Positions 3,530 to 31,208 of a stretch of DNA of 64,000 nucleotides are shown here, in pieces (position 1 is the stretch's first letter; each line of letters opens with the position of its first letter). The notes under the pieces were generated by a model. It was not told the DNA's origin. It was given only the letters and a program-made list of their open reading frames with translations, and made no database searches. The translations under genes were made by a program, and so were the position numbers. The stretch covers positions 89,600-153,599 of the forward strand of contig JAZDHZ010000033.1 in assembly GCA_043805415.1 (NCBI GenBank), written 5' to 3'. The DNA comes from Candidatus Omnitrophota bacterium (lineage in GTDB: Bacteria > Omnitrophota > Gorgyraeia > B26-G9).

Positions 3530-4774
3530 ATGATTTATCATCGGTTAATAACCAATAAAATAGTTGCGCGTTTATCAGATCCTGATATTCTTATCTTAGT
3601 TGGGGCGAGACAAGTGGGAAAAACAACGATATTAAGGCAGATAAAAGAGTCTTTATCTTCTAAAGGAGAACAGACAGAATTTATTAATCTTGAAGATTTA
3701 GAATATGTGAAATTATTAGATGAAAGCCCTAAAAATCTATTCAAAATAATAGCTTTGCCGGAGAAAAAGAAGATTTTTGTTTTTGTTGATGAAATCCAAT
3801 ATCTTAAAAATCCAACTAATTTCCTGAAATATATTTATGATGAGTTTAAGGATAAAGTTAAGCTTATTGTCTCGGGATCGTCAGCGTTTTATATTGATGA
3901 AAAATTTAAAGATTCACTTGCGGGAAGAAAAATTATATTTCCCGTCCATACTCTCAGTTTGCCGGAAATGCTTATTTTTCAGGGGCATGAGGATTTAGCC
4001 GAAAAAACAGCGTTTAAAATAAGGTCTAAGAATATATTCTTGGAGGATTTTCCGCTTAAGGAAAAAGAAAAGGTTACTGCTTGTATCAACAGTCTTCTTA
4101 TCTTTGGAGGGTATCCTCGGGTTGTTTTAGAAAAAGATGTTTCCAGGAAAAGGGAGATAATAGAAGAAATAGCTTTATCTTATATAAAAAAAGATGTGCT
4201 GGAAGCAAATATTAAGAGAACTAATAAGTTTTATGAACTTTTTAAACTGCTAAGTTCTCAAGTAGGAAGCTTGCTTAATGTTAATGAACTTTCTAATACA
4301 CTTAATATATCTCAGACTTCCTTAAATAATTATTTGCATGTAATGAGAAAGTCGTTTCATATTGTTCTTATTCGGCCGTTTTATAAGAATTTGAGGAAAG
4401 AATTAACTAAAATGCCCAAGCTATATTTTATGGATTTGGGATTGAAGAATTTTTTTCTTAAAGATTTTACCCCGCTTGCCTTGCGTGAAAATCCTGGGTT
4501 TTTATACGAAAATTTTATATTTAAGCAATTCGCGGAATTGTTTTCCCTTGACGATATAAAATTTTGGAGGACACAAACTGGTAACGAAACAGATTTTATT
4601 TTAGAAAATAAAACAGCTTGTGAAGTAAAATATAATATTAATAATTTTTCAGTGGCAAAGTATAAAATGTTTTTGAATAGTTATGATGATTTTACTCTAA
4701 ATGTAATATATCATACAGGGATAGTTAAAGATAATGTCCTTAAAGATAAGCGGTTCAATTTTATAAGACTGTAA
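3530..4774 (+). CDS. AAA+ superfamily ATPase (AAA_14 / DUF4143 type, COG1373-like)
   Basis: Walker A ILILVGARQVGKTT and Walker B-like FVFVDEIQY. The C-terminal region is typical of DUF4143 ATPases. Confidence 0.7.
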   Translation: MIYHRLITNKIVARLSDPDILILVGARQVGKTTILRQIKESLSSKGEQTEFINLEDLEYVKLLDESPKNLFKIIALPEKKKIFVFVDEIQYLKNPTNFLKYIYDEFKDKVKLIVSGSSAFYIDEKFKDSLAGRKIIFPVHTLSLPEMLIFQGHEDLAEKTAFKIRSKNIFLEDFPLKEKEKVTACINSLLIFGGYPRVVLEKDVSRKREIIEEIALSYIKKDVLEANIKRTNKFYELFKLLSSQVGSLLNVNELSNTLNISQTSLNNYLHVMRKSFHIVLIRPFYKNLRKELTKMPKLYFMDLGLKNFFLKDFTPLALRENPGFLYENFIFKQFAELFSLDDIKFWRTQTGNETDFILENKTACEVKYNINNFSVAKYKMFLNSYDDFTLNVIYHTGIVKDNVLKDKRFNFIRL

Positions 4775-8245: not shown

Positions 8246-8754
8246 TTGGCATATTTTTATTAAATAGGGTATAATTATTATGTAATATGAGTACAACTAA
8301 ATTTCCAAAATGCGATTTATGTTGTAACCATAATTAGAAAAAGGCAAACCTCACGTGAGTGGGGGGCGTCCCAAGAGTCGGATGGATTAAGTAAGACAAA
8401 GGGACCTTGAAAAAAAAGAACGCTATAATATATAAAATATTTTTCAAGGCAAAGCTACGGGTCTAAAAGGGAAAATTGTAAATGGATTTTATTTGTTTTC
8501 AAGTTAGATAGCCGGGCTACCGAAAAATGGTGAACAATATTCCAACCGAACTATCTGGGACAGATGGATCGGTTTTATTTTATATAGGGTTTGAAAATGC
8601 AGAAGGCAATTAATATCTGCAGAAAGGAGGCGCAACTGATAAAATAAACCTGCTGATTTTAGGTTTGTGGGGTCAGAAGCAGTCCTATAATCAGTCAAAC
8701 TGGGAATAAACAACATGGATAAAATTTTAGAGCGAAATTCTTGGGGAAGAATTA

Positions 8755-8790
8755 GCTTGACAGGAAAACATTGTTTTGATAAATATATAT
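8755..8790 (+). promoter_or_regulatory. Putative sigma70-type promoter (TTGACA-N17-TAAATA) upstream of the orphan pilin gene
   Basis: A TTGACA hexamer sits about 55 nt upstream of the pilin ATG with a 17-nt spacer to a TA-rich -10 element. The GGAGG RBS follows. Confidence 0.35.
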
Positions 8791-8810
8791 ATATAACTGG
8801 AGGAAATAAA

Positions 8811-9224
8811 ATGAATAGAAAAGGTTTTACACTTGTTGAACTTTTGATGGTAGTTATCATCATTGGTATATTGGTAACGTTGGCTGTTCCAAGTTATTAT
8901 AAGTCAATTGAAAGAGCAAAAGGCGGTAAAGCAAAATCATCTTTACGTACTATCACTAATGCTCAAATACAGTATAGAGCGCTTAATGATACATATGTTA
9001 ATGGTGCTGATTTAACTTTATTAGCTGATGTTGATTTGCCTGCGGAATTACAGGATGGAGCTACTGGAGATGGAGATTGGACATATGCATGTACTTCTAC
9101 TGATATCACTGCGGATGTTCTTACTACAGCTACAAGAAATCTTGGGCCTTATGCTGGTGATACTGTAACAATGGATCAAGATGGCTTCTATATTAATGTT
9201 GATGCCCATCAAGAATGGAACTAA
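8811..9224 (+). CDS. pilA: type IV pilin / prepilin-type N-terminal cleavage-methylation domain protein (candidate major pilin); start refined to the internal Met after a GGAGG RBS
   Basis: Class III signal peptide: MNRKG|FTLVELLMVVIIIGILVTLAVPSY (G-F cleavage site, Glu at +5, hydrophobic alpha1 helix). The track ORF 8715-9224 has an unlikely 5' extension. Confidence 0.8.
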   Translation: MNRKGFTLVELLMVVIIIGILVTLAVPSYYKSIERAKGGKAKSSLRTITNAQIQYRALNDTYVNGADLTLLADVDLPAELQDGATGDGDWTYACTSTDITADVLTTATRNLGPYAGDTVTMDQDGFYINVDAHQEWN

Positions 9225-9260: not shown

Positions 9261-9322
9261 TGATGCCACTGATTTATTCGTTTAAAGATTTATTAAATGA
9301 ATAAATCAGTGGTTTTTTTAAA
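9261..9322 (+). terminator. Rho-independent terminator after the pilin gene
   Basis: Perfect 14-bp inverted repeat ccactgatttattc ... gaataaatcagtgg followed by tttttttt. Confidence 0.75.
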
Positions 9323-9380
9323 CTTATCGAAAGTGTTTGTTTAGTTAGGGGTTTAACGAATTAATTGAGGAGGCGAAATA

Positions 9381-10487
9381 ATGCGGATAATTGCGGTAGC
9401 TAATCAAAAAGGCGGTTGCGGTAAAACAACGACATCAATTAATTTATCTGCTTGTTTAGCCGCGCTTAAAAAAAATGTTTTGTTAATAGACTTAGATCCA
9501 CAGGGACACGCGAGTTTGGGGTTAAATATCCAGCCGCAGGATTTATCAAAAACCATATATAATGTATTGACCACAGATAGCGAAGCCAAATTCCGGCTTG
9601 ATGAAGTTATTATCCCTATATCTGAAAATCTTGATCTGGCTCCGGCAAATATTTTGTTATCCGCGATTGAGCAGGAACTGTCTGGAAAACCAGAAAGAGA
9701 AGCAAAATTATTTCAAGCAATATCTTTAATGGTAAGTAAAAAAACATATGATTATGTAATTATTGATTGCTCTCCAAGTTTGGGTCTTTTGACTTTTAAT
9801 GGATTGCGTGCTGCTACTGAACTGATTGCTCCGGTGGACACTGGATTTTTCTCTTTGCATGGCATAAGCCGTTTACTGGAAACTGTCAATCTTATTGATA
9901 AACGCTTGAATTGTCAGATAAAAGTAAAAGCATTGATCACAATGTTTGATTCCAGAACTAAATTTTCCCATGAAGTAAAAGACGAAATTTATAAATATTT
10001 TTCAGGCAATGTTTTTGAAACAGTAATTCATAATAATGTTAGAGTAAAAGAATCTTCAAGCTATGGGGTACCTGTCGCGGCTTATGATAAGCGCTGCCGA
10101 GGGGCACAAGATTACAGCGCATTAGCCAATGAAGTTGAATCTCCGATGAGCAAGGAAAAAGCTAAAGATAAAACCAGCAGCGCTTCTGAGAAAATAACAT
10201 CTTTTATTCAGGAAGTACAGCAGGTCAAAAAAGGCACAGTAGTTACTTTTAATTCTCTGGACGCGAAAAATGTTGAAATTGCCGGTGATTTTAATAACTG
10301 GGTTAGTTCGGTTGATACTAAACTTGAACGGATTGATAATGGTGTATGGGCTAAAGTGATTCATCTTAAACCCGGTGCTTATAAATATAAATTTGTTGTT
10401 GATGGACAATGGATAACTGATCCCAATAATCCTAAGCTGGAAATTGACGAAGTAGGTAATAAAAATTCGATTTTAGAAGTTAAATAA
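9381..10487 (+). CDS. Soj/ParA-family P-loop ATPase fused to a C-terminal CBM48 (AMPK beta glycogen-binding-domain-like) carbohydrate-binding module
   Basis: Deviant Walker A NQKGGCGKTTTSINLSACLA...LLIDLDPQGHAS is almost Soj-like. The C-terminal 90 aa (VVTFNSLDAKNVEIAGDFNNWVSS...YKYKFVVDGQWITDPNNPK...NSILEVK) closely parallel the AMPK beta GBD/CBM48 signature GSFNNW...YKFFVDGQW.HDP...NNIIQVK. Confidence 0.85.
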   Translation: MRIIAVANQKGGCGKTTTSINLSACLAALKKNVLLIDLDPQGHASLGLNIQPQDLSKTIYNVLTTDSEAKFRLDEVIIPISENLDLAPANILLSAIEQELSGKPEREAKLFQAISLMVSKKTYDYVIIDCSPSLGLLTFNGLRAATELIAPVDTGFFSLHGISRLLETVNLIDKRLNCQIKVKALITMFDSRTKFSHEVKDEIYKYFSGNVFETVIHNNVRVKESSSYGVPVAAYDKRCRGAQDYSALANEVESPMSKEKAKDKTSSASEKITSFIQEVQQVKKGTVVTFNSLDAKNVEIAGDFNNWVSSVDTKLERIDNGVWAKVIHLKPGAYKYKFVVDGQWITDPNNPKLEIDEVGNKNSILEVK

Positions 10488-10507: not shown

Positions 10508-11425
10508 ATGAATAAATTAAAGAAGTTGGGTAAGGGATTAGAAGACATTTCCTATTTGTTTCTTTCTCCGGAGCAAGAAGATACTATTCAAGAAGAGTCC
10601 ATGGCTGAAAAAAAGAAAATTTTAACTGAAACTATTGAGATTACGACAAAAAACATTTGTTTAATCGGCAATAGCCATGATTCGCGAGATGCTTTTTTAG
10701 TGATTAATTTATCATTAGCTTTGGCTAGACTGGGGATGCGTATCGCGGTAGTTGATATGGATGAGAAGCTTCCTTGTCTAAATTTTTTATTAGGAAAAAG
10801 CGCTAACAATGGATCGCAAAATAATGATCAGGAAATTGTTCGCCAAGGGCCTTTTGGCGTAAAGCTGGCAGGGCTAAATGAGTCTCTGCTTGAAAATATG
10901 TTGGTTGATTCTGTTGCTAGAAAAACAATTATGCTGGAACTGAAAAAAATGGAAGAAGAAGTTGATCTTGTGCTGATTAGTGTATCACAAGATAGCCTTT
11001 ATTATATGAATCCATTGCTTAGAAAATCAATAGAAGAATTTCTAGTTTTTGTTTCTCCGGATAAAAACTCAATGCTTAATTCTTATAAAGTTGTAAAAAC
11101 CATTTTTTCTAATAACCCGGTTGCTAAAATTGGTACGATTATAACTGATATTGAACACATGTATGAAATTGACGCGGTGTTTAATAAAATGTTTTCCGCG
11201 GTAAAGAAATTTCTGGTTAAAGAGCTGTATAAATATGGATTTCTTTTTAAACTAAAACAGGAAATTAATAACAACGCGAATATCGCTTCTTTTTATGACG
11301 CGGATTTGACGGCTTGCATCTCAAATATCGCGCAGATTATTATATTGCGCTTGAACCTTGCGGAAAATGTTAAATCAAGCGGGGAATTATTTAAAAATGT
11401 TTTTAATGAGTTTGGGATAAATTGA
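10508..11425 (+). CDS. ParA-fold protein with degenerate (inactive) Walker A and an N-terminal ParB-like LGKGLEDISYLFL peptide
   Basis: Residues about 50-100 (ICLIGNSHDSRDAFLVINLSLALARLGMRIAVVDMDEKLP) align to the ParA P-loop region, but KGGxGKT is replaced by GNSHDSRD. A Walker B-like VDLVLISVSQDS is retained. N-terminal KKLGKGLEDISYLFLS resembles the ParA-activating N-terminal peptide of ParB/Spo0J (GLGKG..AL). Confidence 0.55.
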   Translation: MNKLKKLGKGLEDISYLFLSPEQEDTIQEESMAEKKKILTETIEITTKNICLIGNSHDSRDAFLVINLSLALARLGMRIAVVDMDEKLPCLNFLLGKSANNGSQNNDQEIVRQGPFGVKLAGLNESLLENMLVDSVARKTIMLELKKMEEEVDLVLISVSQDSLYYMNPLLRKSIEEFLVFVSPDKNSMLNSYKVVKTIFSNNPVAKIGTIITDIEHMYEIDAVFNKMFSAVKKFLVKELYKYGFLFKLKQEINNNANIASFYDADLTACISNIAQIIILRLNLAENVKSSGELFKNVFNEFGIN

Positions 11426-11432
11426 GGCTGTT

Positions 11433-12128
11433 ATGACAACGATATTTCACAACGCGCAAATTAATAAAGAAAAACTCAGACAGATTATTTTAAAAAATCC
11501 GCAATCTCTGCTCGCGGGATTAAGTTTTATTGATTTAGAGATGGCTACGGATGAGTCTGGAGTCATTGATTTCTTAGGAGTGGATATAACTGGGCGCATG
11601 GTGGTTGTGAATTTTGATACCCAGGCTAATGACCAGATGCTCATAGAAATATTGTCTCAAATTCAATGGCTCAAAAAAAATGAAGGATTAATCAAAAGGT
11701 TATTTTTTAGTGAGAGCGTGGATTTTGAACAAGCGCCTCAAATGCTTTTGGTTTGTCCTGTTTTTTCCAATAAAATCCAATCAGCGGTAAAACAATTGAC
11801 GGATAAAGATATAAAACTTTTAAAATTTAAATATATTGTCTCAAACGCTGATGACGCGATAATCTTTGACGAGGTATTTTCCAGTATAAATTCAGCCTCC
11901 GCGCCAGCTTTAAAAACTCAACTATCAACTGACCGGGAAAGTATAATGGTTGATCGCGCTGCTTTAACCAAGCACGCGCCGCTAATTAAAAAGACGGTAT
12001 CAGAAATAAGTGAAGACGCGAAAAAAGAACAATCTCCCCTATATGATGTGATTACTCTTACGCCGGAAGAGATTACGGAATTCATGGATTTTAATATAGC
12101 CTTGGCACAGAGCCAAGCAGCTGATTAA
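11433..12128 (+). CDS. hypothetical protein (no recognisable domain); coding likely from position in the operon and start overlap context
   Basis: A 231-aa ORF that starts 8 nt after the upstream stop. No motif could be assigned by eye. Confidence 0.4.
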   Translation: MTTIFHNAQINKEKLRQIILKNPQSLLAGLSFIDLEMATDESGVIDFLGVDITGRMVVVNFDTQANDQMLIEILSQIQWLKKNEGLIKRLFFSESVDFEQAPQMLLVCPVFSNKIQSAVKQLTDKDIKLLKFKYIVSNADDAIIFDEVFSSINSASAPALKTQLSTDRESIMVDRAALTKHAPLIKKTVSEISEDAKKEQSPLYDVITLTPEEITEFMDFNIALAQSQAAD

Positions 12129-12231: not shown

Positions 12232-12987
12232 ATGCAAGGTGTAAATAGATCATCATCGATCTATAAAATAAATAATTTACTTCCAAACAATATTATATCC
12301 GCTTTTTCCATAGGGAAATTAAATTATGATTATCGTGCTGGGAATGAAAGTGAAGTTCTAAAAAATAGAAAAGATTTTTTTTATCAAGCAGGACTTGCGC
12401 TTGATACTGCTGTTTTTCCCCAACAAGTTCATAAAGCAAACATTCTAAAGGTTGAGCAAAAAGACAAAGGACGTGGCGCGTTTTCTTTCGCGCAGGGCAT
12501 CCCCCAAACAGACGCGTTGATAACTAACGCGAAAGGGATCGCGCTCTGCCTGCTTAGCGCTGATTGTTTGCCGATTATTTTCTATGAAGCAAATGGCAGG
12601 GCAATTGGGATCGCGCATGCCGGATGGCGGGGAATACACGCGGGGATAATTGAAAAAACAATCTTGGCCATGGCCAATGAATTCGCGATTAATCGCGAAG
12701 ATATTAAAGCGTTTTTTGGCCCGGCGATAGGGAGCTGCTGCTATGAAGTTGGCCCTGAGTTTTTAGATATTTTTCCTGAGAATATTAGCGCGCGAAATAA
12801 TAAAACATACCTGGATATTAAAAGCTTAGCTCGGATAAAATGTCTTAGTTCTGGGATTTTTCAGGATTCAATAAATGACGTATCTATTTGTACCAAATGC
12901 AGTAATGACACATTTTTCTCTTATAGATCCGGAGATAATCTCAATCGCCTAATCAGTATTGTGGCTATTGGTGAGCAATGCGGATAG
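12232..12987 (+). CDS. pgeF: peptidoglycan editing factor PgeF / YfiH (DUF152, laccase-domain purine nucleoside phosphorylase family)
   Basis: Family-typical motifs CLLSADCLPIIFYE, IGIAHAGWRG, GPAIGSCCYEVG, and a C-terminal Cys cluster. Confidence 0.8.
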   Translation: MQGVNRSSSIYKINNLLPNNIISAFSIGKLNYDYRAGNESEVLKNRKDFFYQAGLALDTAVFPQQVHKANILKVEQKDKGRGAFSFAQGIPQTDALITNAKGIALCLLSADCLPIIFYEANGRAIGIAHAGWRGIHAGIIEKTILAMANEFAINREDIKAFFGPAIGSCCYEVGPEFLDIFPENISARNNKTYLDIKSLARIKCLSSGIFQDSINDVSICTKCSNDTFFSYRSGDNLNRLISIVAIGEQCG

Positions 12988-13046
12988 ATAGCAATTTCCG
13001 GCTTAGGGAGCTATTTTTTATTTTGACTAATTATCTGCTTGACATT

Positions 13047-13080
13047 TATATGTATCTGTAGTAATTTCTTTAAATAGATA
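13047..13080 (+). promoter_or_regulatory. Putative promoter (TTGACA ... extended -10 TGTAGTAAT) for the Lys-rich protein gene
   Basis: The hexamers sit about 16 nt apart in the AT-rich region upstream of 13105. Confidence 0.3.
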
Positions 13081-13104
13081 ATATCTTTTAAATTAACTAA
13101 AAAA

Positions 13105-14988
13105 TTGAAAAATATGACAAAAAAAATAAGTTTCAAAAAACAAGCAAAAGCTAAAAATACTGTTGCGAAGAAAATTAAAACAGTAGAAAAAAAAGCTTTA
13201 AAAATCAAGGTTGTGAAAACTGCGAAGCCTGCGCGCAAAAAATTAGGTAAGGGCTTGGAAGATATCTCAACCTTGTTTTTGTCTGATATTAAAAAAGACG
13301 CGGTAATTGCTAAGAAAAAAACAATAAAATCCGCGGCTAAAAAAAGTGTAATGCCAAAGGTTAAAAAAGTAAAAAGCGCAAGTGTTAAGACATTAGGCAT
13401 TGCTATAAAAAAATCTCCTAAAAAAATCATTGCAAAGGTTGCTAAAAAACCAGCGGCAGCAAAGGAAATCGTTGCTAAGACTATTGCAAAGGTTGAAACA
13501 AAACCAGCAGTATTAAAGGAAATCGTTGCGCATAAGACTATTGCAAAGGTTGAAACAAAACCAGTGGCAGCAAAGGAAATCGTTGCGCATAAGACCATTG
13601 CAAAGGTTGAAACAAAACCAGCAGTATTAAAGGAAATCGTTGCGAATAAAACTATTGCCAAGGTTGAAAAAAAGGCAACTGCAGTAAATGATAATGTTCC
13701 TAAAAAAACTGTTGCTAAACTTGCTAAAAAAATAGCTGTAGTAAAGGAAAGTATCCCGGAAAAAGTAATCGCGCGTGTTGATGCGAAATTAGACGCGGCA
13801 AAGGATAAAAATCCTGAGAAAACTATGGCTTTAACTGATAAAAAAACTGTAAAAGAGACAACAGGTAAAACACTTGAAAAAATTGCAGTAAAACAAGAAG
13901 AAGCAAAACAAGCAACTTCCAAACCAATTATGAAAATAACAGAGGTGGTAGGGATGGGAACGTTAAAAAAGTCTTCGAAAGCGGTTAAAAAACCAAAGCA
14001 GGATAAACCAGCAGAAAAAAAGAGTACTAAAACAAAAGAGAATAAAAAAACACAAACCTTAGGCCCAATCAGTGATCTGAAGACTTTGTTTAAGAAGAGA
14101 AAAACAGCCGGATTAACTGTTGAGCCGCAGAATATTCAAACAGAGCAAGTTATTGAGGATAGCAAATTTTTTGTTAGTAAGGAAACTGTAAGTCGGATCG
14201 CGGAAGATGAATTTTGTGATTTGCCTGAAGGCTACGGTGATAATAGAATTGTTATTCAGGTTAGGGATCCGTATTGGTTATTTGCTTATTGGGAAGTTTC
14301 TCAGAGAAAATTAAGTTCAGTTGTGGAGAAATATGGTAGTGCTATCCATAACGCAAAAAGAGTACTACGGGTTCATGATATTACATCGGTTGCATTCAAT
14401 GGAAAGAATTCAAACAGTTTTTTTGATATAGCGATTAATGATGTTGCCAAGAACTGGTATGTAAATGTCGGCAATCCTGGGAGAAGTTATTGTATTGATC
14501 TGGGGCTTGTCTTAGCTGATGGGCGTTTTGTCGTGTTTGCTCGTTCAAATTTTGTGACAACTCCGATTGATGGCCCAAGTCTAATAACTGATGAAGAGTG
14601 GATGATTGTTGAAGATGATTTTAACAAGCTTTATGGATTATCTGCTGGATTGGGGATTGGCCTGAGTTCCGGAGAGTTGAGAAGACAAATAAAAACAAAG
14701 ATGAAGAATTTATCATCAGGGATATTGAGTTCACCTGGGGTGACAACAGTGTCTCCGCGTCGTAATTTTTGGATGGTTGTCAATACTGAGCTAATAGTTT
14801 ATGGAGCAACTCAACCAGGTTCTGAACTTACAGTGCAGGGAAAACCGATTAAATTAAATGAAGATGGAACATTTAGTCTTCGTTTTGCCTTGCCTGATGG
14901 AGAGCAGGTCATTCCGGTTCGGGCGGTTTCTCCGGATAAGGTTGAAGAACGGGTAATTACTCCTGTGGTCAAAAAAAACACGGTGTAA
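13105..14988 (+). CDS. Lys/Ala-rich (histone H1-like) protein with a ParB-like LGKGLEDISTLFL peptide, four ~20-aa tandem repeats and a C-terminal DUF4912-like globular domain + beta-sandwich tail
   Basis: Residues 40-60 ARKKLGKGLEDISTLFLS match the motif of the 10508 protein. Repeats KEIVAHKTIAKVETKPAVL x4. C-terminal RIVIQVRDPYWLFAYWEVS...NWYVNVGNPGRSYCIDLG looks like the DUF4912 signature. The opposite-strand ORF 13011-13922 is a low-complexity artefact. Confidence 0.6.
   Translation: MKNMTKKISFKKQAKAKNTVAKKIKTVEKKALKIKVVKTAKPARKKLGKGLEDISTLFLSDIKKDAVIAKKKTIKSAAKKSVMPKVKKVKSASVKTLGIAIKKSPKKIIAKVAKKPAAAKEIVAKTIAKVETKPAVLKEIVAHKTIAKVETKPVAAKEIVAHKTIAKVETKPAVLKEIVANKTIAKVEKKATAVNDNVPKKTVAKLAKKIAVVKESIPEKVIARVDAKLDAAKDKNPEKTMALTDKKTVKETTGKTLEKIAVKQEEAKQATSKPIMKITEVVGMGTLKKSSKAVKKPKQDKPAEKKSTKTKENKKTQTLGPISDLKTLFKKRKTAGLTVEPQNIQTEQVIEDSKFFVSKETVSRIAEDEFCDLPEGYGDNRIVIQVRDPYWLFAYWEVSQRKLSSVVEKYGSAIHNAKRVLRVHDITSVAFNGKNSNSFFDIAINDVAKNWYVNVGNPGRSYCIDLGLVLADGRFVVFARSNFVTTPIDGPSLITDEEWMIVEDDFNKLYGLSAGLGIGLSSGELRRQIKTKMKNLSSGILSSPGVTTVSPRRNFWMVVNTELIVYGATQPGSELTVQGKPIKLNEDGTFSLRFALPDGEQVIPVRAVSPDKVEERVITPVVKKNTV
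13445..13685 (+). repeat. Four tandem copies of a 60-bp coding repeat inside the Lys-rich gene
   Basis: aaggaaatcgttgcgcataagactattgcaaaggttgaaacaaaaccagc... is repeated head-to-tail with a few substitutions. Confidence 0.85.
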
Positions 14989-15020
14989 GTGCTGGAATCC
15001 TTTAACATGCTTTTTAATCG

Positions 15021-15058
15021 CGCCGGAATGAGTATTAACATTCCGGCGTTTTATTTTT
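15021..15058 (+). terminator. Rho-independent terminator after the Lys-rich/DUF4912 gene
   Basis: cgccggaatg-agtattaa-cattccggcg followed by ttttattttt. Confidence 0.8.
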
Positions 15059-15185: not shown

Positions 15186-16766
15186 ATGGAAAAAGGATAT
15201 CTTTGTATTGTTTTACATGGGCATTTACCTTTTGTTCGTCATCCTGAGCACGCGAATTTCTTAGAAGAAGAATGGCTTTACGAGGCTATAACTGAGACAT
15301 ATATTCCATTGCTTAGTATATTTGATAAGTTGATAGAAGACGGAGTTAATTTTCGGATTACCATGGGTGTATCTCCGCCATTAATATCAATGCTTCTTGA
15401 TCCTTTATTGCAGCATCGTTACATAATGCATATAGAGAAATTAATCGAATTGGCAAGTCGTGAGGTTGAAAGAACAAGATGGCAGCCGGAATTTAATAAG
15501 CTGGCTTTAATGTATCTAAGTAAATTTAATCTTGCCCGATATTATTTTGCCGAAAAACACCGGGGAAATCTTTTAGAGGCATTTAAAAGAATTCAGGATG
15601 CCGGAAGATTAGACATCATGACTTGCGGCGCTACGCATGGGTTTTTCCCATTGATGGATACATGTAGAGATTCAATTCGGGCACAGGTAAGAGCCGCGGT
15701 TGAGCAATATAAAAAAGTATTTCAGCGTCAACCAAAGGGCATTTGGCTGCCTGAGTGTGGATATCATCCTGGTGACGATGAAATCCTGCGGGAAAACGGA
15801 TTAAGATATTTCTTTAGTGATACCCATGGGGTACTTCATGGTACTCCGCGGCCCAAATATGGTGTTTTTGCTCCGGTTTTTTGTAAGTCCGGAGTTGCTT
15901 GCTTTGGACGGGATCTGGAGTCTTCAAAACAGGTTTGGAGCGCTAAGCAGGGATATCCTGGAGATTACAATTACCGGGAATTCTATCGGGATATTGGTTT
16001 TGATCTTGATTTTGATTATATAAAACCGTATATTCATCCAGATGGAATCAGAACAAATACAGGAATAAAATACTATCGGATTACCGGGGAAACCGATAAT
16101 AAACAGCCGTACAATCAAGATGTTGCTATGCAAACAGCGGCATCGCACGCGTCTAATTTTATGTTCAACCGGGAAAAACAGGCGGAGTATGTGAAGGACA
16201 TAATAAAAAGAAAACCGATTATTGTCGCTCCCTATGACGCGGAGTTATTTGGACACTGGTGGTATGAAGGCCCGGATTGGCTTAATTTTTTAATTAGAAA
16301 AATTGCTTTTGATCAAAAAAATATCAAACTTATTTCGCCATCGGATTACTTAGATGAATATCCGAAAAATCAAGTTATTACACCTTCACTTTCCAGTTGG
16401 GGATATAAAGGTTATGCCGAGTTTTGGCTGGAAGGTTCAAATGCCTGGGTTTACAGGCATTTACATAAAGCTTCTGAGCGGATGAGTGAATTAGTTAAGC
16501 TTTATCCCAATGCCGGCGGTTTGACGCTTAGGGCGCTGAACCAGGCTTTGCGTGAAGTATTACTTGCCCAAAGTTCTGACTGGGCTTTTATTATGAAAAC
16601 CGGGACACATGTTTCTTATGCTGTGGATAGAACCAAAAAACATGTGCTTAATTTTACAAAATTATACAATCAGATAAAGGCAGATAATATTAAAGAACAG
16701 TGGCTGAGTGAAATTGAGTCAAAAGATAATATATTTCCTGACATTGATTATCATTACCATTCTTAA
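15186..16766 (+). CDS. glycoside hydrolase family 57 protein, 1,4-alpha-glucan branching enzyme type (DUF1957-containing)
   Basis: N-terminal GH57 signature YLCIVLHGHLPFVRHPE and ...CGATHGFFPLM match Thermus/Thermococcus GH57 branching enzymes. Length about 525 aa. Confidence 0.88.
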   Translation: MEKGYLCIVLHGHLPFVRHPEHANFLEEEWLYEAITETYIPLLSIFDKLIEDGVNFRITMGVSPPLISMLLDPLLQHRYIMHIEKLIELASREVERTRWQPEFNKLALMYLSKFNLARYYFAEKHRGNLLEAFKRIQDAGRLDIMTCGATHGFFPLMDTCRDSIRAQVRAAVEQYKKVFQRQPKGIWLPECGYHPGDDEILRENGLRYFFSDTHGVLHGTPRPKYGVFAPVFCKSGVACFGRDLESSKQVWSAKQGYPGDYNYREFYRDIGFDLDFDYIKPYIHPDGIRTNTGIKYYRITGETDNKQPYNQDVAMQTAASHASNFMFNREKQAEYVKDIIKRKPIIVAPYDAELFGHWWYEGPDWLNFLIRKIAFDQKNIKLISPSDYLDEYPKNQVITPSLSSWGYKGYAEFWLEGSNAWVYRHLHKASERMSELVKLYPNAGGLTLRALNQALREVLLAQSSDWAFIMKTGTHVSYAVDRTKKHVLNFTKLYNQIKADNIKEQWLSEIESKDNIFPDIDYHYHS

Positions 16767-16772
16767 AAACAA

Positions 16773-16990
16773 AAGCAGTTATGAATTACTAGTTATGAGT
16801 TACGAGTGAAAAGCAAAGAGCTGAAACAGTTCGTAAAGGCCAAAGGTCAATATTCAATAGCTAATGGTCGATAGAAAAAAAAGAAAGAAAAAAGCATATT
16901 GAATTATTTATCATTTAGTGTTTTTTCGCGATACGCGATACGCGCGACGCAATACAGAAAACAGAAGACAAATGTTTTCTGTTTTCTTTA
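16773..16990 (+). repeat. Composite intergenic repeat element, copy C (AGCAGTTATGAATTACTAGTTATGAGTTACGAGTGAAAAGCAAAGAGCTGAAACAGTTCGTAAAG + CGCGATACGCGATACGCGCGACGCAATACAGAAAACAG hairpin module)
   Basis: Shares both modules with copies at 6543-6622 and 8131-8245. Ends in the inverted repeat cagaaaaca...tgttttctg. Confidence 0.7.
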
Positions 16991-23732: not shown

Positions 23733-25385
23733 ATGGCTTTTTTTAGAACCACCGTAGGTCTATATATAGGTCCTAAAACTGTACAAATTGCCCAAATGCA
23801 AGCAATCGCGGGTAAGATACAGCTAACCAATTTTGTTCATGTCGATATATTCGATGGAGAACAATCCGAATCAGCCGATAAAGAGGCGCTGATTCTCTCT
23901 GCCCTCAAAAAAGCGGTAAATAAATCAAAAATTGATCTTAAAAGAGTTAATACAGTATTAATGCCAGGTATGGTATTATTACGTTATTTTCAAATGCCGA
24001 GAATTAGCGCCGAAGAGCTTGAAGAGGCGGTAAGATTTGAGGCAAGAAAATATATTCCTTTTCGTTTAGAAGAAGCGGTAACTGGTTTTTACATTCTGAA
24101 AGAAGATCAGGAAAAGAAAAAACTGGGAATCCTTTCTTTAGTAACAAAAGAAGAATCAATTAAAAACCACCTGACAATTCTCCATAAAGTTGATATCCAG
24201 CCAACGGCTGTGGAAACTGCCTCTTTTGCTTTGCTGCGTCTTTTGGAATATTCTGGAGATATCGAAAGAGATAAATCTAACGCGGTTTTGTATCTTTATG
24301 CCCAAAGAATAAATATTATAATCCTTAGAAACAGTATCCCTTATTTCGTGAGAGATATTTCTTTGGCAAAAAAAGAAGAATGGATAGATGACGAAACTGC
24401 TGAATTTTTAATGGGAGGAAAGATTAGTTCCGCTGACAGCCGGATAGTAACTCTGGAAAATATGATCAGTGAATTACGTATTTCTTTTGAATATTATAAA
24501 AAAGAGTTGGGAAAAGAAAATGTAAGTAAGATGATTTTGTGCGGAGAAGTTGATGATTTTGATGATTTAGAGCTTGTGAGCAAAGCTGCTCAAGATCAGC
24601 CGGATAATCCTTGTCCCTTGAGTGTGTTTTTAGAAAAACAATTTGATATCCCAGTTAGATTGGTTGATCCGCTAAAGAATATTGTTAGCCCTAAGGCAAA
24701 ACCCTTGCCGTATACTTTCCCAATGCTTGCCGTTACTATTGGGGCCGCTTTAAGAAACTTAAGTAAATCTACTGTGGAAATAGATCTTTTTCGTGCCAGA
24801 AAAAAAACAAGTTTAAAGGCTAAAGTCCTTATTACGAAAATGATCGGCATGGAAGTTGGCGCGCTTTTAGTTTGTTTTATTATTATGTTTATAGTATCTT
24901 CGGTGTTTATTTCCAGAGAAAATAATTTGCTGGAACAAGAAAAAAGATCAGCGCCAAAATTTATGGATTTAAGCCATTTTAGTGAAGATCAGTTAAAAAC
25001 GGGTGAGCAGGAAATAAAACAGAGAATTAATGCTTTTAATAAAATTGTTACAAATAGGTTTGTAGTCACTGATAAATTAAGCGCTTTATCAAAAATAATT
25101 CCTGATGGAATTTGGATGGATAAGTTCATTTTTTTAGTTTCGGCTAAAGAAAAAAATTATGTTGATCGTAGTCTTGAGCTTTCGCTATCGGGTTTTATTT
25201 ATACTGATCAAAAAGGTATGGAAATTGAAATGGTGAATGATTTTACTGAGGCATTAAAATCAAACGATTTGTTTTTTAGCGATTTTAAAGTAATAAAAAC
25301 TGGCTCAGTTGCCCGCGAAACATTTTACGCGATACCGGTTATGACTTTTGAATTGACATGCTTTTCTAAGGCTGGAGAAAAATAA
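23733..25385 (+). CDS. pilM: type IV pilus assembly protein PilM (actin-like ATPase fold) fused to a PilN-like TM/coiled-coil module
   Basis: N-terminus MAFFRTTVGLYIGPKTVQIAQ is typical of PilM. A TM helix (VGALLVCFIIMFIVSSVFI) at about aa 375 is followed by a PilN-like periplasmic region. Length of 550 aa exceeds the usual ~350 aa for PilM alone. Confidence 0.75.
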   Translation: MAFFRTTVGLYIGPKTVQIAQMQAIAGKIQLTNFVHVDIFDGEQSESADKEALILSALKKAVNKSKIDLKRVNTVLMPGMVLLRYFQMPRISAEELEEAVRFEARKYIPFRLEEAVTGFYILKEDQEKKKLGILSLVTKEESIKNHLTILHKVDIQPTAVETASFALLRLLEYSGDIERDKSNAVLYLYAQRINIIILRNSIPYFVRDISLAKKEEWIDDETAEFLMGGKISSADSRIVTLENMISELRISFEYYKKELGKENVSKMILCGEVDDFDDLELVSKAAQDQPDNPCPLSVFLEKQFDIPVRLVDPLKNIVSPKAKPLPYTFPMLAVTIGAALRNLSKSTVEIDLFRARKKTSLKAKVLITKMIGMEVGALLVCFIIMFIVSSVFISRENNLLEQEKRSAPKFMDLSHFSEDQLKTGEQEIKQRINAFNKIVTNRFVVTDKLSALSKIIPDGIWMDKFIFLVSAKEKNYVDRSLELSLSGFIYTDQKGMEIEMVNDFTEALKSNDLFFSDFKVIKTGSVARETFYAIPVMTFELTCFSKAGEK

Positions 25386-25389
25386 TTTA

Positions 25390-25926
25390 ATGGCTATTAA
25401 AAAGATTATTCCACGCGAAATACAACAGGTTTTTATTGTTGGAGCAGTTATTTTTTTGTTTTTATTTTTTTGGGGTGGGCGTGTTTTGCAAAAATATCAT
25501 GACACGCAAATTATGAAGATAAGAAAACAGCGCAAAAGAGTTGAACTTGAAAATGCGGTTGCTGTGCAATTAAGTAAATTGAAAAAGCTTAAAGAAGAAA
25601 TAACAATTATTAATGAAAGTTCACGCTTTTTGGCTGAAATTGCTAAAATGTCTGGACAGCTTAATTTGAAGATTACTTCGATATCAGCGGTTCCTATTGA
25701 AAAGCGTGATGAGTTTATCAAATTAGGAGTAAGTATGGACATTGATACTACCTATCATGAGCTAGGGGTTTTTATGAGCAAACTTGAGTCAGCAGAACTA
25801 TTTATAACTGTTGAAAAATTAGAAATGATTTCTACTATGGGTAAAAATCCCGCGGAAGCGCCAAGGGTAAATGCCAAAATGAATCTTACAACTTTTGTTT
25901 TAACAGATACTATTTTGGAGAGATAA
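25390..25926 (+). CDS. pilO: type IV pilus assembly protein PilO-like (single TM + coiled coil + periplasmic domain)
   Basis: Position between pilM/N and pilP-pilQ. An N-terminal TM (VFIVGAVIFLFLFFWG) followed by predicted coiled coil. Confidence 0.55.
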   Translation: MAIKKIIPREIQQVFIVGAVIFLFLFFWGGRVLQKYHDTQIMKIRKQRKRVELENAVAVQLSKLKKLKEEITIINESSRFLAEIAKMSGQLNLKITSISAVPIEKRDEFIKLGVSMDIDTTYHELGVFMSKLESAELFITVEKLEMISTMGKNPAEAPRVNAKMNLTTFVLTDTILER

Positions 25927-26474
25927 TGCGTAAAATTCTATTATTAGTTTTAGCATTAATCCTGGTTTTTTCTAGCAGCGATTCTTCTATTGCAGCGCCT
26001 GCTAAAAAGCCAGTTGCTAAAAAACCAGTTGCCAAAAAACCAGTTGCCAAAAAACCAGTTGCTAAAAAAGGCGCTGTTGAAGAAGTTGATAAAGACGTTG
26101 GTAAAGACGTAAAAAAAGAAAAATACAAATCCAGAAGTGAAATTAAATATACTGGTTTTGATTCTAAAAGGGATCCTTTTTCGCCTCCTGAAGTTGTTGT
26201 TAAGATGTTAGAAAAACCGGAAGGGATTCCTGGGGCTGAAATCTTGGCCAAGGATATTAAACTGCCTGCGATTGATTTGCAGGGAATTATTTGGTCAAAA
26301 AATATTCCACAGGTGATTATTAATGGCGGGGTGATGAAGGTGGGAGATTTCATTGAGGAGTTTGAAATAAAAGAAATTCGCAGAACTGGTATAATTTTAT
26401 TTTTTAAGGGCAATGATTATTTTATAAAAATGGTTGGTTATACCCAGAAAAATACGAAAAAGAAAAAAAGATAA
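25926..26474 (+). CDS. pilP: PilP-like pilot/periplasmic protein with signal peptide, (AKKPV)4 tandem repeat and a C-terminal beta-domain
   Basis: Signal peptide MRKILLLVLALILVFS. DPFSPP motif. C-terminal LQGIIWSKNIPQVIINGGVMKVGDFI resembles the PilP core. Lies immediately upstream of the secretin, with a 1-nt taATG overlap with pilO. Confidence 0.5.
   Translation: MRKILLLVLALILVFSSSDSSIAAPAKKPVAKKPVAKKPVAKKPVAKKGAVEEVDKDVGKDVKKEKYKSRSEIKYTGFDSKRDPFSPPEVVVKMLEKPEGIPGAEILAKDIKLPAIDLQGIIWSKNIPQVIINGGVMKVGDFIEEFEIKEIRRTGIILFFKGNDYFIKMVGYTQKNTKKKKR
25996..26065 (+). repeat. 15-bp tandem repeat x4-5 (gctaaaaaaccagtt) encoding (AKKPV)n in pilP
   Basis: Direct repeats are visible in the sequence. 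The antisense ORF 25910-26413 is a repeat artefact. Confidence 0.8.
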
Positions 26475-26484
26475 GGAGCTAGAA

Positions 26485-28128
26485 ATGAAAAGGATTTTTG
26501 CGATACTGATTATGTTGTGGCTGAATTTAGCTTTTTTGATGAGTATCCATCAACCTAGTTTTGTTTTTGCCCAAGCTCAGACAGAATATGCGATAGAGGA
26601 TGATTCAGCTGTTGCTGAGGCTGATGATAAAGGTTTGGTTTCTTTAGATTTTAAAGATGCTGATCTAAAAGATGTTTTAAAAGTTTTTTCTCAGCAGTCG
26701 GGTCTAAACTTTGTCGCGGCCAAAAACATAGAAGATAGAGCGATAACTCTGTATATGAATGATGTTTTAGTGGAAGATGCTTTAAAGACTTTGTTAGACG
26801 CGAATAATTTAGGGCTTGAGCAAAATCCAGGCAGTAATATTTTGATTGTCAACGCTAAGCCGACCCTGCCAATCCAAACCATCACTCGAGTTTATAAAGT
26901 TCGATATTATCATGGTAATGTTTCTCCGGGTACTTACCTTTTAACTGAAGGTAAAAATAAGGAAACTAGAGGATCTGGAGATTGGAAAGATATTATTAAG
27001 CCTTTATTGAGTGAGTTTGGGGTTGTGATTGATTATACGAATATCTTAATAATTACAGATGTGCCTGACCGATTTAAACTTATTGATCAAGTAATCAGCG
27101 AAATTGACCGTCCGATTCCTGAAGTAATGCTTGAGGTTGAATTAATTGAAACAACCTCTAATTTTCTGAAAAAAATTGGAATGGAGTGGAGTGAGCAAAT
27201 GATGACATTTTCCGGAGCTTCAACTATTACAGCTTTTCCATTTGTTACAGAAGGTCGCTCGCGTGCGGCTCCAGGTTTTACCACATTGATTACTCCCTTA
27301 GCTAAAGAAGGAGCTTTTTTTAGTTACGGGCTTTTAGATTCAAGTGTTATGCAGTGGACGATGAGGATGTTGCAGACTGATACCAATACAAAGTTTCTCT
27401 CAAAACCAAGAATTCTTGTCCAGGACCGAGAGTGGGCGGAAATTAAAGTAACAGCTGATCAAATTGTTTCCGTGCAATCAACTGTTGATAATGAAACCGG
27501 AGATGTTACAACAAAAGTTGAAAGAATGGAAGTTGGAACAATTTTACGCCTAGTTCCGATTATTAACGCGGAAGAGGGATTTGTTTCAATTCTTTTAGAA
27601 CCAAGTATTTCCCGTCCGGTTCAGTCAGTATTTAAATCTATTGATGATACTAATTTCGTTGATCCGCATTCAAGAAGTATGCGTACTGTAGTGATGTCGC
27701 GTGATGGAGAAACAATAGCAATCGGTGGTTTTATTACAACTGAAGATCAAGAAGTAAAGACTAAAGTGCCTTGGCTGGGAGATTTGCCGCTTCTCGGTAT
27801 GTTTTTCCGTCATACTTCAAATGACCGGGTGGATAAGGAATTGCTGATTTTTGTTACGCCAAGAATTGTAAATCCTTCTGAGAAAGTGGAAATGTGGATG
27901 AGTGATAGTTTTAACAAAGGAGTGCTTGAGCATGCTCAAGGCCGTGAACAATCCGCATCTGCGCCGACGCAAGATAATAATAAAGTTTTAGTAAAGAAAG
28001 GTGATTCTGAAGCGAAAGAAACATCTTTAAATGATATGCCTTTTAGAGAACAGGAAGAAACAATAGACAGTAGTATTGATTTAACTTTACAGAGTTCAAG
28101 TTTGACTACCGTTGATTTAATAAAATAG
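26485..28128 (+). CDS. pilQ: type IV pilus secretin PilQ; start refined to the Met after an AAGGAG RBS
   Basis: Signal peptide MKRIFAILIMLWLNLAFL. N0/secretin_N region (VSLDFKDADLKDVLKVFSQQSGLNFV). C-terminal secretin motif (GETIAIGGF...LLIFVTPRIV). Confidence 0.8.
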   Translation: MKRIFAILIMLWLNLAFLMSIHQPSFVFAQAQTEYAIEDDSAVAEADDKGLVSLDFKDADLKDVLKVFSQQSGLNFVAAKNIEDRAITLYMNDVLVEDALKTLLDANNLGLEQNPGSNILIVNAKPTLPIQTITRVYKVRYYHGNVSPGTYLLTEGKNKETRGSGDWKDIIKPLLSEFGVVIDYTNILIITDVPDRFKLIDQVISEIDRPIPEVMLEVELIETTSNFLKKIGMEWSEQMMTFSGASTITAFPFVTEGRSRAAPGFTTLITPLAKEGAFFSYGLLDSSVMQWTMRMLQTDTNTKFLSKPRILVQDREWAEIKVTADQIVSVQSTVDNETGDVTTKVERMEVGTILRLVPIINAEEGFVSILLEPSISRPVQSVFKSIDDTNFVDPHSRSMRTVVMSRDGETIAIGGFITTEDQEVKTKVPWLGDLPLLGMFFRHTSNDRVDKELLIFVTPRIVNPSEKVEMWMSDSFNKGVLEHAQGREQSASAPTQDNNKVLVKKGDSEAKETSLNDMPFREQEETIDSSIDLTLQSSSLTTVDLIK

Positions 28129-28150
28129 GTGTTTTTACACAGGTGAAATT

Positions 28151-29851: not shown

Positions 29852-29856
29852 AATAT

Positions 29857-29895
29857 TTGTTAAAGCCAGCCTAAAGGCCTCTTATATGGTATAAT
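29857..29895 (+). promoter_or_regulatory. Possible internal promoter with a perfect extended -10 (TGGTATAAT) upstream of pilC
   Basis: tatggtataatat at about 29885-29897 in the 120-bp pilB-pilC spacer. Confidence 0.3.
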
Positions 29896-29972
29896 ATATT
29901 AAAGGCTAAAATCTCAAGTAGCTAAATAATTTGACTTTAGAGTAAAAAATTGTTCAGGAGATATTAACTAGA

Positions 29973-31208
29973 ATGCCGGATTTTTTATATAAAGCAAGAG
30001 ACTCTGATGGAAATCTAGTTCAGGGTACAATGATTGCTGAATCGGAGTCTGAAGTTATAGAAATTCTACAGCGCAGAGCCTTGCTTATTACATCAGTACA
30101 GGAAATAGTTGTAAAACAAAAAGCAAAAGGTTTTGGTTTTAAATTCGGAAAAAAAATTTCGCTTTCTAGCAGAGTTAAACTTGATGACTTGTGTATTTTC
30201 GCGAGACAACTTGGAACTTTGCTGAATGCTGGTGTGCCTTTGTTAAGAAGCCTTTCGGTATTAGCTAAACAGATCGGCAGTGCTCCTTTACGTGATGCGG
30301 TTGAGAAAATTAAGGAAGATATTCAGAGTGGAAGCACTTTACGTGATGCTTTAGATAAACATCCTAAAGTGTTTTCCTCTTTTTGGGTTAATTTAGTTGG
30401 AACTGGTGAAGCTTCTGGTCAATTGCCTTCAGTTCTTGAGCAAATCGCGCAGTATTTTGAAAGTTCTGGGGAATTGCAAAGAAAGATAGTTTCGGCATTA
30501 ACTTATCCGGCGATTCTAATGGTTGTTTGTTTAGGAGCAATTTTAGTTTTTGTTATGAAGATTGTACCTGTTTTTGCTGAAATGTTTGCAAGTTTTGGAA
30601 CCGCGCTTCCTCCAGCTACGCAATTTGTTGTAGACCTTAGTGCTTTTATGAGCAAGTTTGGTTTGCCTCTCTTGATTTTAACCCCAGTACTAATTTTTTT
30701 AATAAGAAAATTATTAAAAACTGATAAAGGCCGGTTCTATTTTGACCATTTTCGGCTAAAGATGCCTATTTTTGGGATACTTTTTAGAAATATTGCAATC
30801 GCGAATTTTGCCAGAGGCCTGGGAACAATGATATCTAGTGGTGTTCCTATTCTTTATGCTCTAGAAATTGTTACAAAAACTGTGGGCAATAGAGTTATTG
30901 AAGACGCGCTTGAAATGGTCAAAGACAGTGTACGTGATGGTAAGTCAATTGCTGAGCCGCTTGAACAATGCGGAATTTTTCCTCCAATGGTTGTGTTGAT
31001 GGTTAATGTCGGCGAAGAAACTGGTGAATTAGCTGATATGCTTAAACATGTCGCTATATTTTATGAGGAAAGAATATCAATGATGGTAGAGAGATTATCC
31101 GCGCTTATTGAGCCTTTTATGTTAGTTTTTATGGGCGGACTGGTAGGCTTTTTAGTTATTGCTATGTTTATGCCGATATTTAAATTAGCTACAGCGGTAA
31201 ATATGTAA
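29973..31208 (+). CDS. pilC: type IV pilus inner-membrane platform protein PilC (GspF family)
   Basis: Two GspF repeats, three TM segments, about 410 aa. Conserved GspF-type signature stretches. Confidence 0.9.
   Translation: MPDFLYKARDSDGNLVQGTMIAESESEVIEILQRRALLITSVQEIVVKQKAKGFGFKFGKKISLSSRVKLDDLCIFARQLGTLLNAGVPLLRSLSVLAKQIGSAPLRDAVEKIKEDIQSGSTLRDALDKHPKVFSSFWVNLVGTGEASGQLPSVLEQIAQYFESSGELQRKIVSALTYPAILMVVCLGAILVFVMKIVPVFAEMFASFGTALPPATQFVVDLSAFMSKFGLPLLILTPVLIFLIRKLLKTDKGRFYFDHFRLKMPIFGILFRNIAIANFARGLGTMISSGVPILYALEIVTKTVGNRVIEDALEMVKDSVRDGKSIAEPLEQCGIFPPMVVLMVNVGEETGELADMLKHVAIFYEERISMMVERLSALIEPFMLVFMGGLVGFLVIAMFMPIFKLATAVNM

Follow-up and report, generated by a model that had tools for sequence, protein, structure and literature searches.

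Bacteria have a general means of placing their chromosomes, plasmids, carboxysomes, chemoreceptor arrays and division site, the ATPases of the ParA/MinD family. The spacing and inheritance of storage-polymer granules are largely unexplained in bacteria. Granules of polyhydroxybutyrate (PHB) and other polyhydroxyalkanoates (PHA) are tethered to the nucleoid by PhaM and PhaF, which bind DNA and granule passively and have no ATPase cycle. A 64,000-nucleotide stretch of a Candidatus Omnitrophota genome (contig JAZDHZ010000033.1, positions 89,600 to 153,599; hereafter the window) encodes a 368-residue protein, ParA-CBM48 (9381..10487, +; coordinates are those of the window, and + marks its forward strand), in which a Soj-type ParA ATPase is fused to a glycogen-binding module of the AMPK beta type. 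The protein and its relatives suggest an undescribed, widespread bacterial system that positions or partitions glycogen granules. Neither the ParA-CBM48 architecture nor ParA- or MinD-mediated positioning of glycogen was found described in the literature searched, the coverage of which is incomplete.

The closest described relatives of the ATPase half are the ParA/Soj proteins of ParABS systems, exemplified by those of Myxococcus xanthus (8RAY), Thermus (1WCV/2BEK) and Helicobacter pylori (6IUB). Fold, catalytic motifs, signature lysine, Motif 2 aspartate, peptide pocket and basic residues are common to both, and partners of ParA-CBM48 carry, as ParB does, an N-terminal peptide of the form L-G-[KR]-G-L-x-x-[IL]. 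ParA-CBM48 differs in possessing a C-terminal CBM48, in having no ParB/Srx CTPase or ParB box nearby, in two substitutions within the peptide pocket, in its distance from the ParA equivalog model, and in its set of partners (pseudo-MinD, NucS-fold and DUF4912 proteins). With the McdAB system of carboxysomes, PomXYZ and ParC/ParP it would share the use of a ParA-type ATPase for a non-DNA cytoplasmic cargo, as well as small or disordered activating regions in the partners; there, however, cargo binding falls to the partner, whereas ParA-CBM48 has the cargo-binding domain on the ATPase. PomX and PomY illustrate that more than one protein can activate a single ATPase (PMC13170346), an arrangement that the ParA-CBM48 system may resemble.

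MinD likewise ends in a C-terminal surface-targeting module, the avidity of which would double on ATP-driven dimerization, and the predicted fold of the principal partner is nearest to FlhG (4RZ2) of the FlhG/FleN group. Unlike in MinD, the targeting module of ParA-CBM48 is an 80-residue carbohydrate-binding domain rather than an amphipathic helix, the ATPase half is Soj-like, and the MinD-like protein is a partner without Walker A. The CBM48 itself belongs to the AMPK beta subfamily (PF16561); as in AMPK beta, SEX4 and LSF1, it is a non-catalytic module of the kind that takes a protein to glycogen or starch. The PTST family comprises further plant CBM48 targeting proteins. In those proteins the module accompanies a kinase scaffold, a phosphatase or a coiled coil; here it accompanies a P-loop partition ATPase, in a bacterial, cytoplasmic protein. 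PhaM and PhaF share with it the concept of coupling a storage granule to the nucleoid for inheritance, and are unrelated in sequence. What sets ParA-CBM48 apart from the ParA/MinD positioning systems is thus the cargo-binding domain on the ATPase, a set of unrelated partners sharing a ParB-type peptide, and the proposed cargo.

A Soj-type ATPase joined to an AMPK-type CBM48

The ParA-CBM48 gene is an intact open reading frame (ORF) with an ATG start, preceded at a distance of 7 nt by the ribosome-binding site GAGGAGG (9367..9373, +). Pfam, matches in the PDB and mapped residues place the ATPase domain at residues 1-253 (9381..10139, +), with a deviant Walker A motif, QKGGCGKT, at residues 9-16 (nt 9405-9428, +). 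A K/E-rich linker, unconserved in the homologue alignment, spans residues 254-286 (10140..10238, +), and Pfam, PDB matches and alignment assign residues 287-368 (10239..10484, +) to the CBM48, including W307, K337, W344, G359 and N362. The AAA_31 model (PF13614) matches residues 1-182 with 180.6 bits (E 3.5e-53, cut-off 27), and CbiA residues 4-232. Against the PDB, the N-terminal 259 residues score 198 bits to M. xanthus ParA 8RAY and about 145 bits to the Thermus and Helicobacter Soj proteins, and YVIIDCSP is the segment that aligns to Walker B in 8RAY, 1WCV and 6IUB. None of the NCBIfam equivalog cut-offs is reached by ParA-CBM48: the ParA partition ATPase model NF041546 gives 98 bits against the required 180, and the MinD models TIGR01968 (minD_bact) and TIGR01969 give 49.8 against 212.9 and 79.8 against 201.75. 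A MinD-type C-terminal amphipathic membrane-targeting helix is also absent, as the C-terminus of the protein is the CBM48 (ending NSILEVK).

At the C-terminal end, AMPK1_CBM (PF16561) matches residues 287-368 with 59.5 bits (E 3.8e-16, curated cut-off 26.8) and the general CBM_48 model with 33.5 bits (cut-off 22.4). The top PDB matches of the last 102 residues in phmmer are the glycogen-binding domains of AMPK beta2 and beta1 (E 3e-11); next in rank are a pullulanase CBM48 and two starch phosphatases, SEX4 and LSF1. The initial annotation had called this ORF an intact, deviant-Walker-A, Soj-like ParA followed by an AMPK-beta-type CBM48. Both identifications stand, every motif it quoted from the two domains is found in the ORF, and placement of the C-terminal domain in a non-carbohydrate E-set family, which it had named as the way to be wrong, is not borne out by Pfam or PDB phmmer. 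Its further claim that the ParA cycle is coupled to a polysaccharide-binding module holds as architecture, in that ParA and CBM48 occur together in one conserved protein. The peptide-bearing partners, the breadth of the family and its clade-specific, non-universal linkage to glycogen genes are additions to that picture.

Residues expected to be functional are the ones retained. Across 117 homologues, the Walker A lysines K10 and K15 are kept in 116, and D39, the counterpart of M. xanthus D60 (the Motif 2 or Walker A′ aspartate), is 99% conserved. Residues of M. xanthus ParA defined by experiment (PMC12462528) were transferred through the alignment to 8RAY. Its pocket for the ParB peptide, L150/G151/L152/L187, becomes L134/G135/L136/L171 in ParA-CBM48, and Y81, which receives R13 of the peptide, becomes Y60. 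Two pocket changes are family-specific and near-invariant, V116 to Q98 (99%) and L155 to F139 (97%). The DNA-binding R238 corresponds to R221, a position that is Arg or Lys in 96% of close relatives; R192 (100%) and K223 (99%) extend the basic patch, and the canonical P-[RK]-N is replaced by H-x-N. In B. subtilis ParA/Soj, the DNA-binding residue is R189. From the conserved catalytic, pocket and basic residues, the ParA half appears to be a functional Soj-type ATPase that binds DNA, is regulated by a partner and has specificity determinants of its own.

The same holds for the carbohydrate-contacting residues, the conservation of which the initial annotation had left to be checked. In the alignment to AMPK, W307, K337 and W344 are the equivalents of beta1 W100, K126 and W133. 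W307, W344 and F304 are invariant among the 117 homologues, position 337 is Lys or Arg in all of them, S363 is kept in 100% and N362 in 93%, and the equivalents of G147 and N150 are conserved as well. In AMPK beta1, glycogen binding is lost in the W100G and K126Q mutants and reduced in W133L and G147R (PMC6274970). Outside these contacts the domain diverges to about 40% identity. The linker varies between 14 and 48 residues (median 28) and is K/E-rich without being conserved in sequence, as a flexible tether would be.

A family in at least seven phyla

Other bacterial proteins of this architecture were sought, and a family spanning at least seven phyla was found. Among 5.8 billion proteins searched, the 120 clusters listed share 43-100% identity with the window protein, all carry both PF13614 and PF16561, and 117 are full length; they are annotated as just “AAA family ATPase” or “chromosome partitioning protein.” When one genome of each species was scanned with the fusion-specific C-terminal 184 residues, tblastn confirmed at least 533 candidates, the best 80 of which all encode the uninterrupted fusion; the remaining 453 may include proteins with CBM48 only. 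Most of the best 80 loci belong to Omnitrophota, with others in Planctomycetota, Thermodesulfobacteriota/“Deltaproteobacteria,” Zixibacteria, Rokubacteria, Myxococcota, Ca. Auribacter and Gammaproteobacteria (Thiogranum, Thiohalobacter). Among the 80 is the complete chromosome of Ca. Velamenicoccus archaeovorus (locus L060). None of 72,556 plasmids encodes the fusion. Neither the 64-kb window nor any of the 86 loci contains an ORF with a ParB box (ParB/Srx CTPase; GERRxRA, ENLQR), and the genes downstream of ParA-CBM48 belong to families other than ParB.

A search with the CBM48 alone is uninformative on the fusion, being swamped by proteins with multiple CBM48 repeats. Such proteins are an observation in their own right: bacterial proteins built of 3-18 tandem AMPK-type CBM48 copies abound (P0197-P0346), a length of about 480 residues with four copies being frequent. 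They look like an uncharacterized class of multivalent glycogen-binding proteins.

A ParB-like peptide on unrelated partner proteins

The gene that begins 20 nt after ParA-CBM48 (10508..11425, +) encodes a 305-residue protein with the N-terminus MNKLKKLGKGLEDISYLFLS. Its residues 5-20, KKLGKGLEDISYLFLS (10520..10567, +), form a candidate ParA-binding peptide, recognized by motif match and homologue alignment. The ParB motif defined by experiment reads L11-G-R13-G-L15-x-x-L18, and Lys occupies the R13 position in about half of chromosomal ParBs (PMC12462528). The partner sequence L7-G-K9-G-L11-E-D-I14 agrees with all defined ParB positions but I19. The comparison relies on that experimentally defined motif; phmmer of the 30-residue partner peptide against the PDB gave no match, the query being too short. 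The peptide is near-invariant across 30 aligned partner homologues. The 64-kb window, translated in all six frames, contains two copies and no more, one in this partner and one in the DUF4912 protein described below. A loose regular expression for it matches 21 times in the 86 loci (about 1 Mb), every time on the ParA strand, with 19 matches in the gene directly downstream of ParA-CBM48 and two in DUF4912 proteins. Overall, a peptide-bearing partner, the putative stimulator of the ATPase, lies directly downstream of ParA-CBM48 in at least 22 loci of at least six phyla. Partners are under-detected by single-sequence phmmer, and were found by profile hidden Markov models (HMMs) and by inspecting adjacent genes.

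AlphaFold2 predicts that the first 44 residues of the partner are disordered except for a short helix at the motif, and that the remainder adopts the MinD/FlhG/FleN fold (predicted local distance difference test score, pLDDT, 74 overall and >85 in the core; Foldseek E 1.4e-14 to FlhG 4RZ2). Its P-loop has decayed to GNSHDSRDAF, without the Walker A Lys-Thr. The possibility that it is a second active ATPase was rejected on this ground, since the Lys-Thr is missing from partners in three phyla, Omnitrophota, Zixibacteria and Thermodesulfobacteriota. Judging from this shared degeneracy of the P-loop, the MinD-like partner is an old pseudo-ATPase. No glycogen-binding domain is recognizable in it.

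The third gene (11433..12128, +) encodes 231 residues that begin with a PD-(D/E)xK fold of the NucS/EndoMS type and end, after a disordered linker, in an acidic helix that is conserved. The fold assignment comes from a model of residues 1-150 (pLDDT >90; Foldseek E 6e-6). The catalytic assignment in NucS is the ELK motif. In the third gene it is replaced by NFD, which makes an active nuclease unlikely, and the NucS-like domain is probably not a nuclease. In two Rokubacteria loci (L023:7539-8240 and L037:7601-8305) the peptide is fused straight to the NucS-like domain, a “Rosetta-stone” fusion that ties the second gene of the window operon to the third.

The second copy of the peptide in the window, KKLGKGLEDISTLFLS (13237..13284, +), stands at residue 45 of a 627-residue protein (13105..14988, +) with a Lys-rich N-terminal extension, DUF4912 at residues 377-495 and a glucodextranase-B-like C-terminus. 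No characterization of DUF4912 was found in the literature. The extension contains about 5.9 tandem copies of a 57-bp (19-residue) repeat (13416..13750, +) with a consensus of about KTIAKVETKPAxxKEIVAx, and its length varies greatly among relatives, such that the whole protein ranges from 348 to 627 residues.

An HMM built from the MinD-like partners alone recovers the N-terminal peptide on unrelated proteins: DUF4912 proteins (in the window and L006, and also in L086 and L087), proteins of 182-190 residues in deltaproteobacterial loci, and the NucS-like fusions of Rokubacteria. Since one HMM finds it on unrelated protein bodies, the peptide behaves, as far as its sequence tells, as a portable module marking ParA-CBM48 partners. 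A generalized form of the motif, written as a regular expression after the sequences had been seen, occurs in 28 of the 102 genes flanking ParA-CBM48 and in 4 of 691 others (Fisher p = 8e-23), and two of those four encode DUF4912 proteins.

A diverged three-gene version is found in Thiogranum, Thiohalobacter and other Gammaproteobacteria (L046, L059, L072, L074, L077 and L079). Its partner carries RLAKISARFLSD, its 197-residue third gene product retains the NucS-like strand HPVLVSFD, and in its ParA pocket position 98 is occupied by Ala, Pro or Ser and position 139 by Ile.

Linkage to glycogen genes

The DUF4912 gene of the window is followed by a gene for a GH57 1,4-alpha-glucan branching enzyme (15186..16766, +; Glyco_hydro_57 and BE_C in Pfam, 342 bits to the Thermococcales branching-enzyme model). 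The order ParA-CBM48, partner, NucS-like, PgeF, DUF4912, hairpin, GH57 is kept down to 65% ParA identity. Genes of GH57 lie within 7 kb of ParA-CBM48 in 18 of 84 non-redundant loci, six encoding branching enzymes and 12 a second type of 513 residues. They are arranged in three ways: downstream, on either the same or the opposite strand, or two genes upstream. This proximity is roughly 20-fold above chance for a family present at 1-3 copies per genome, by estimate rather than by a computed control. PGM/PMM genes occur in five of the 84 loci. Omnitrophota metagenome-assembled genomes are generally predicted to synthesize glycogen (PMC8542988). About 80% of the loci show no GH57 neighbor within this distance, and the linkage is therefore clade-specific. 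Stand-alone CBM48 ORFs were observed in two of the 84 loci, both of Thermodesulfobacteriota; they encode 101-119 residues and are located between the ParA-CBM48 operon and a GH57 branching enzyme gene (L010:6337-6642 and L012:6422-6781, both on the reverse strand).

In 20 loci, including that of the complete Ca. Velamenicoccus genome, the gene order is GH57, single-pass membrane protein, ParA-CBM48 (membrane protein at L011:5838-6443, L060:5850-6428 and in 18 further loci). In 12 more, the gene directly upstream of ParA-CBM48 encodes a different membrane protein whose C-terminus is weakly CBM30-like (L014:982-1899 and 11 others). Both families share a conserved N-terminal E-[HE]-L-A-x-[IT]-Y-[LF]-[DS], which is like the second half of the peptide, E-D-I-S-Y-L-F-L-S. 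Because the generalized motif was written post hoc, the membrane proteins are kept as candidate partners only. No locus combines any two of the three partner classes, and the membrane-protein neighbors never occur with soluble peptide partners. Covariation of the ParA pocket residues with partner class was also seen; it is confounded by phylogeny and is not counted as evidence.

A protein of about 130 residues is encoded just downstream of ParA-CBM48 in 18 loci (L013, L024, L039, L040, L044, L057, L061 and L073 among them), often in those with GH57 and a membrane protein. It combines a histone-H1-like poly-Lys N-terminus with a barrel like domain 2 of EF-Tu (ITHYFPHV…AVIKL; 25.8 bits, below the cut-off in Pfam), and could be a DNA-binding or McdB-like partner where the LGKGL peptide is lacking.

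A proposed mechanism and its alternatives

We see an even chance that ParA-CBM48 is the motor of a ParA-type positioning system with glycogen (alpha-glucan) granules as its cargo. The operon holds the components of such a system: an intact Soj-type ParA with its peptide pocket and basic patch, a flexible linker, a CBM48, and two proteins bearing the peptide. Dimerization, DNA binding, glycogen binding, ATPase stimulation and the cellular outcome we infer from these components. ATP-bound dimers of ParA-CBM48 would bind the nucleoid non-specifically, and the two CBM48 modules of each dimer would capture glycogen particles by avidity. The peptide-bearing partners would dock at the dimer interface, stimulate ATP hydrolysis and release ParA. 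Repeated cycles of binding and release could then distribute the granules along the nucleoid, such that both daughter cells would inherit them and the granules would not coalesce.

Several points weigh against this proposal. Glycogen and DNA binding, dimerization and stimulation by the peptide are each read from conserved residues. In the wider family, about one member in four has Ala, Ser or Thr in place of R221, and DNA binding may for this reason not be universal among its members. Canonical ParA systems bind their cargo through a partner and not through the ATPase, and a ParA with affinity for matrix and cargo alike might act not as a motor but as a static tether. A simple granule-partition model leaves the roles of the pseudo-MinD and the NucS-like partner unexplained. 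To these are added the many loci without a GH57 neighbor and the after-the-fact wording of the generalized motif.

The broader claim is more tentative, and we put it somewhat below an even chance: that bacteria of at least seven phyla actively position or partition their glycogen granules with an ATPase that grips the cargo through its CBM48, and that a ParB-like peptide has repeatedly been grafted onto pseudo-MinD, NucS-fold, DUF4912 and possibly membrane proteins. If this is true, a storage polysaccharide joins the cargos of ParA/MinD systems, and the design in which the motor carries the cargo adaptor is new. A ParB-type peptide that moves as a module among unrelated protein bodies, at least four of them, would help to find the partners of “orphan” ParAs. 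The family is also tractable, offering a small two-domain protein, a 16-residue candidate activator peptide and homologues in several phyla, including one in a complete genome; W307, W344, K15 and R221 are residues with clear mutant predictions.

Of the alternatives, the one that survives best, while still unlikely, makes ParA-CBM48 a glycogen-sensing regulator. The CBM48 would be an AMPK-like sensor that tunes the availability or ATPase cycle of ParA, and the true target would lie elsewhere, possibly the chromosome, cell division or a complex of the pseudo-MinD and NucS-like proteins, thereby linking carbon-store status to the cell cycle. The module is specifically of the AMPK beta type, and glycogen binding regulates AMPK activity (PMC6274970). 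The ParA half is very near chromosomal ParAs, as its score to 8RAY attests; however, a canonical ParB is adjacent in 0 of 86 loci, and the invariant pocket substitutions Q98 and F139, together with the dedicated partners, argue for a specialized system. Sensing would agree with partner folds, NucS (DNA-enzyme-like) and MinD-like, that have no evident glycogen link, and with the absence of adjacent glycogen genes from most loci. It is less compatible with the peptide on a DUF4912 protein that adjoins a branching enzyme in several clades, and the long unconserved linker fits tethering better than allosteric sensing.

Glycogen might instead serve as the matrix and not the cargo, following the logic of MinD, an arrangement that we consider quite improbable. 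The CBM48 would stand in for the C-terminal membrane-targeting helix of MinD, the dimer would be avid for the granule surface, and partners would trigger release. Proteins (DUF4912, pseudo-MinD and possibly GH57) would thereby be patterned on granules, or granules coupled to membrane-anchored partners. The retention of R192, R221 and K223 and of a Soj-like surface in the window protein and its clade speaks against this. In its favor are the lack of the DNA-binding residue R221 in one membrane-protein clade, the C-terminal position of the targeting module, as in MinD, and the MinD/FlhG fold of a partner. So are the 32 loci in which an adjacent single-pass membrane protein, exclusive of soluble partners, bears a related half-motif on its cytoplasmic N-terminus, but these N-termini resemble the peptide just partially and the likeness was noticed post hoc.

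The glycogen link could, finally, be coincidental, with a CBM48-like domain co-opted for another ligand such as a protein partner or a different glycan. Folds of the CBM48/E-set type can mediate protein contacts, as the AMPK beta CBM does with the kinase domain, and 80% of loci have no alpha-glucan gene within 7 kb. Such co-option is nevertheless very improbable: the AMPK glycogen-binding residues are invariant in 117 members against a background of divergence elsewhere in the domain, alpha-glucan is the ligand of all the best structural relatives, and GH57 neighbors are far above expectation and stand in three independent arrangements. An assembly or frameshift artefact, about which the initial annotation had cautioned, is excluded by the 117 full-length homologues and by the uninterrupted fusion in 80 of 80 species genomes, a complete chromosome among them, just as a plasmid or mobile-element partition gene is by its absence from all 72,556 plasmids and by the housekeeping context of the window; no supporting evidence was found for either, and their chance is negligible.

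Operon boundaries and other features of the window

Terminator-like hairpins delimit the predicted five-gene unit. At its 5′ boundary, a 20-bp stem with a T-run (9266..9312, +) follows the upstream pilin-like gene; at its 3′ boundary, a hairpin (15020..15049, +) follows the DUF4912 gene. A second terminator-like hairpin stands after the GH57 gene (16956-16987). Between the NucS-like and DUF4912 genes lies a gene for PgeF/YfiH, the peptidoglycan editing factor (12232..12987, +; Cu-oxidase_4, 163 bits against a cut-off of 141), a syntenic passenger that keeps this position in all close relatives without apparent rationale. An antisense ORF of 303 residues, rich in Phe, Leu and Ala (13011-13922, reverse strand), overlies the Lys-rich repeats of the DUF4912 gene; it almost certainly mirrors the AAA/AAG-rich sense strand and is an artefact rather than a gene.

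The window was examined to 37.7 kb, within which no further glycogen or partition genes were found. This part contains housekeeping genes (uppS, cdsA, dxr, ispG, proS), lipid A genes and a type IV pilus/type II secretion system cluster. An ATPase gene with AAA_14 and DUF4143 (3530-4774, +) sits amid sugar-nucleotide genes and is not at that position in L001 or L086. The pilin-like gene of type IV (8715-9224, +; N_methyl, weak ComP_DUS) is directly upstream of the operon in L001, L086 and L087 as well, and is probably unrelated to it, given the strong terminator-like hairpin between them. The pilus/secretion cluster itself (23733-31208, +) encodes PilM-like, PilO, T2SSB and secretin proteins, a PilB-type ATPase with MshEN, and PilC.

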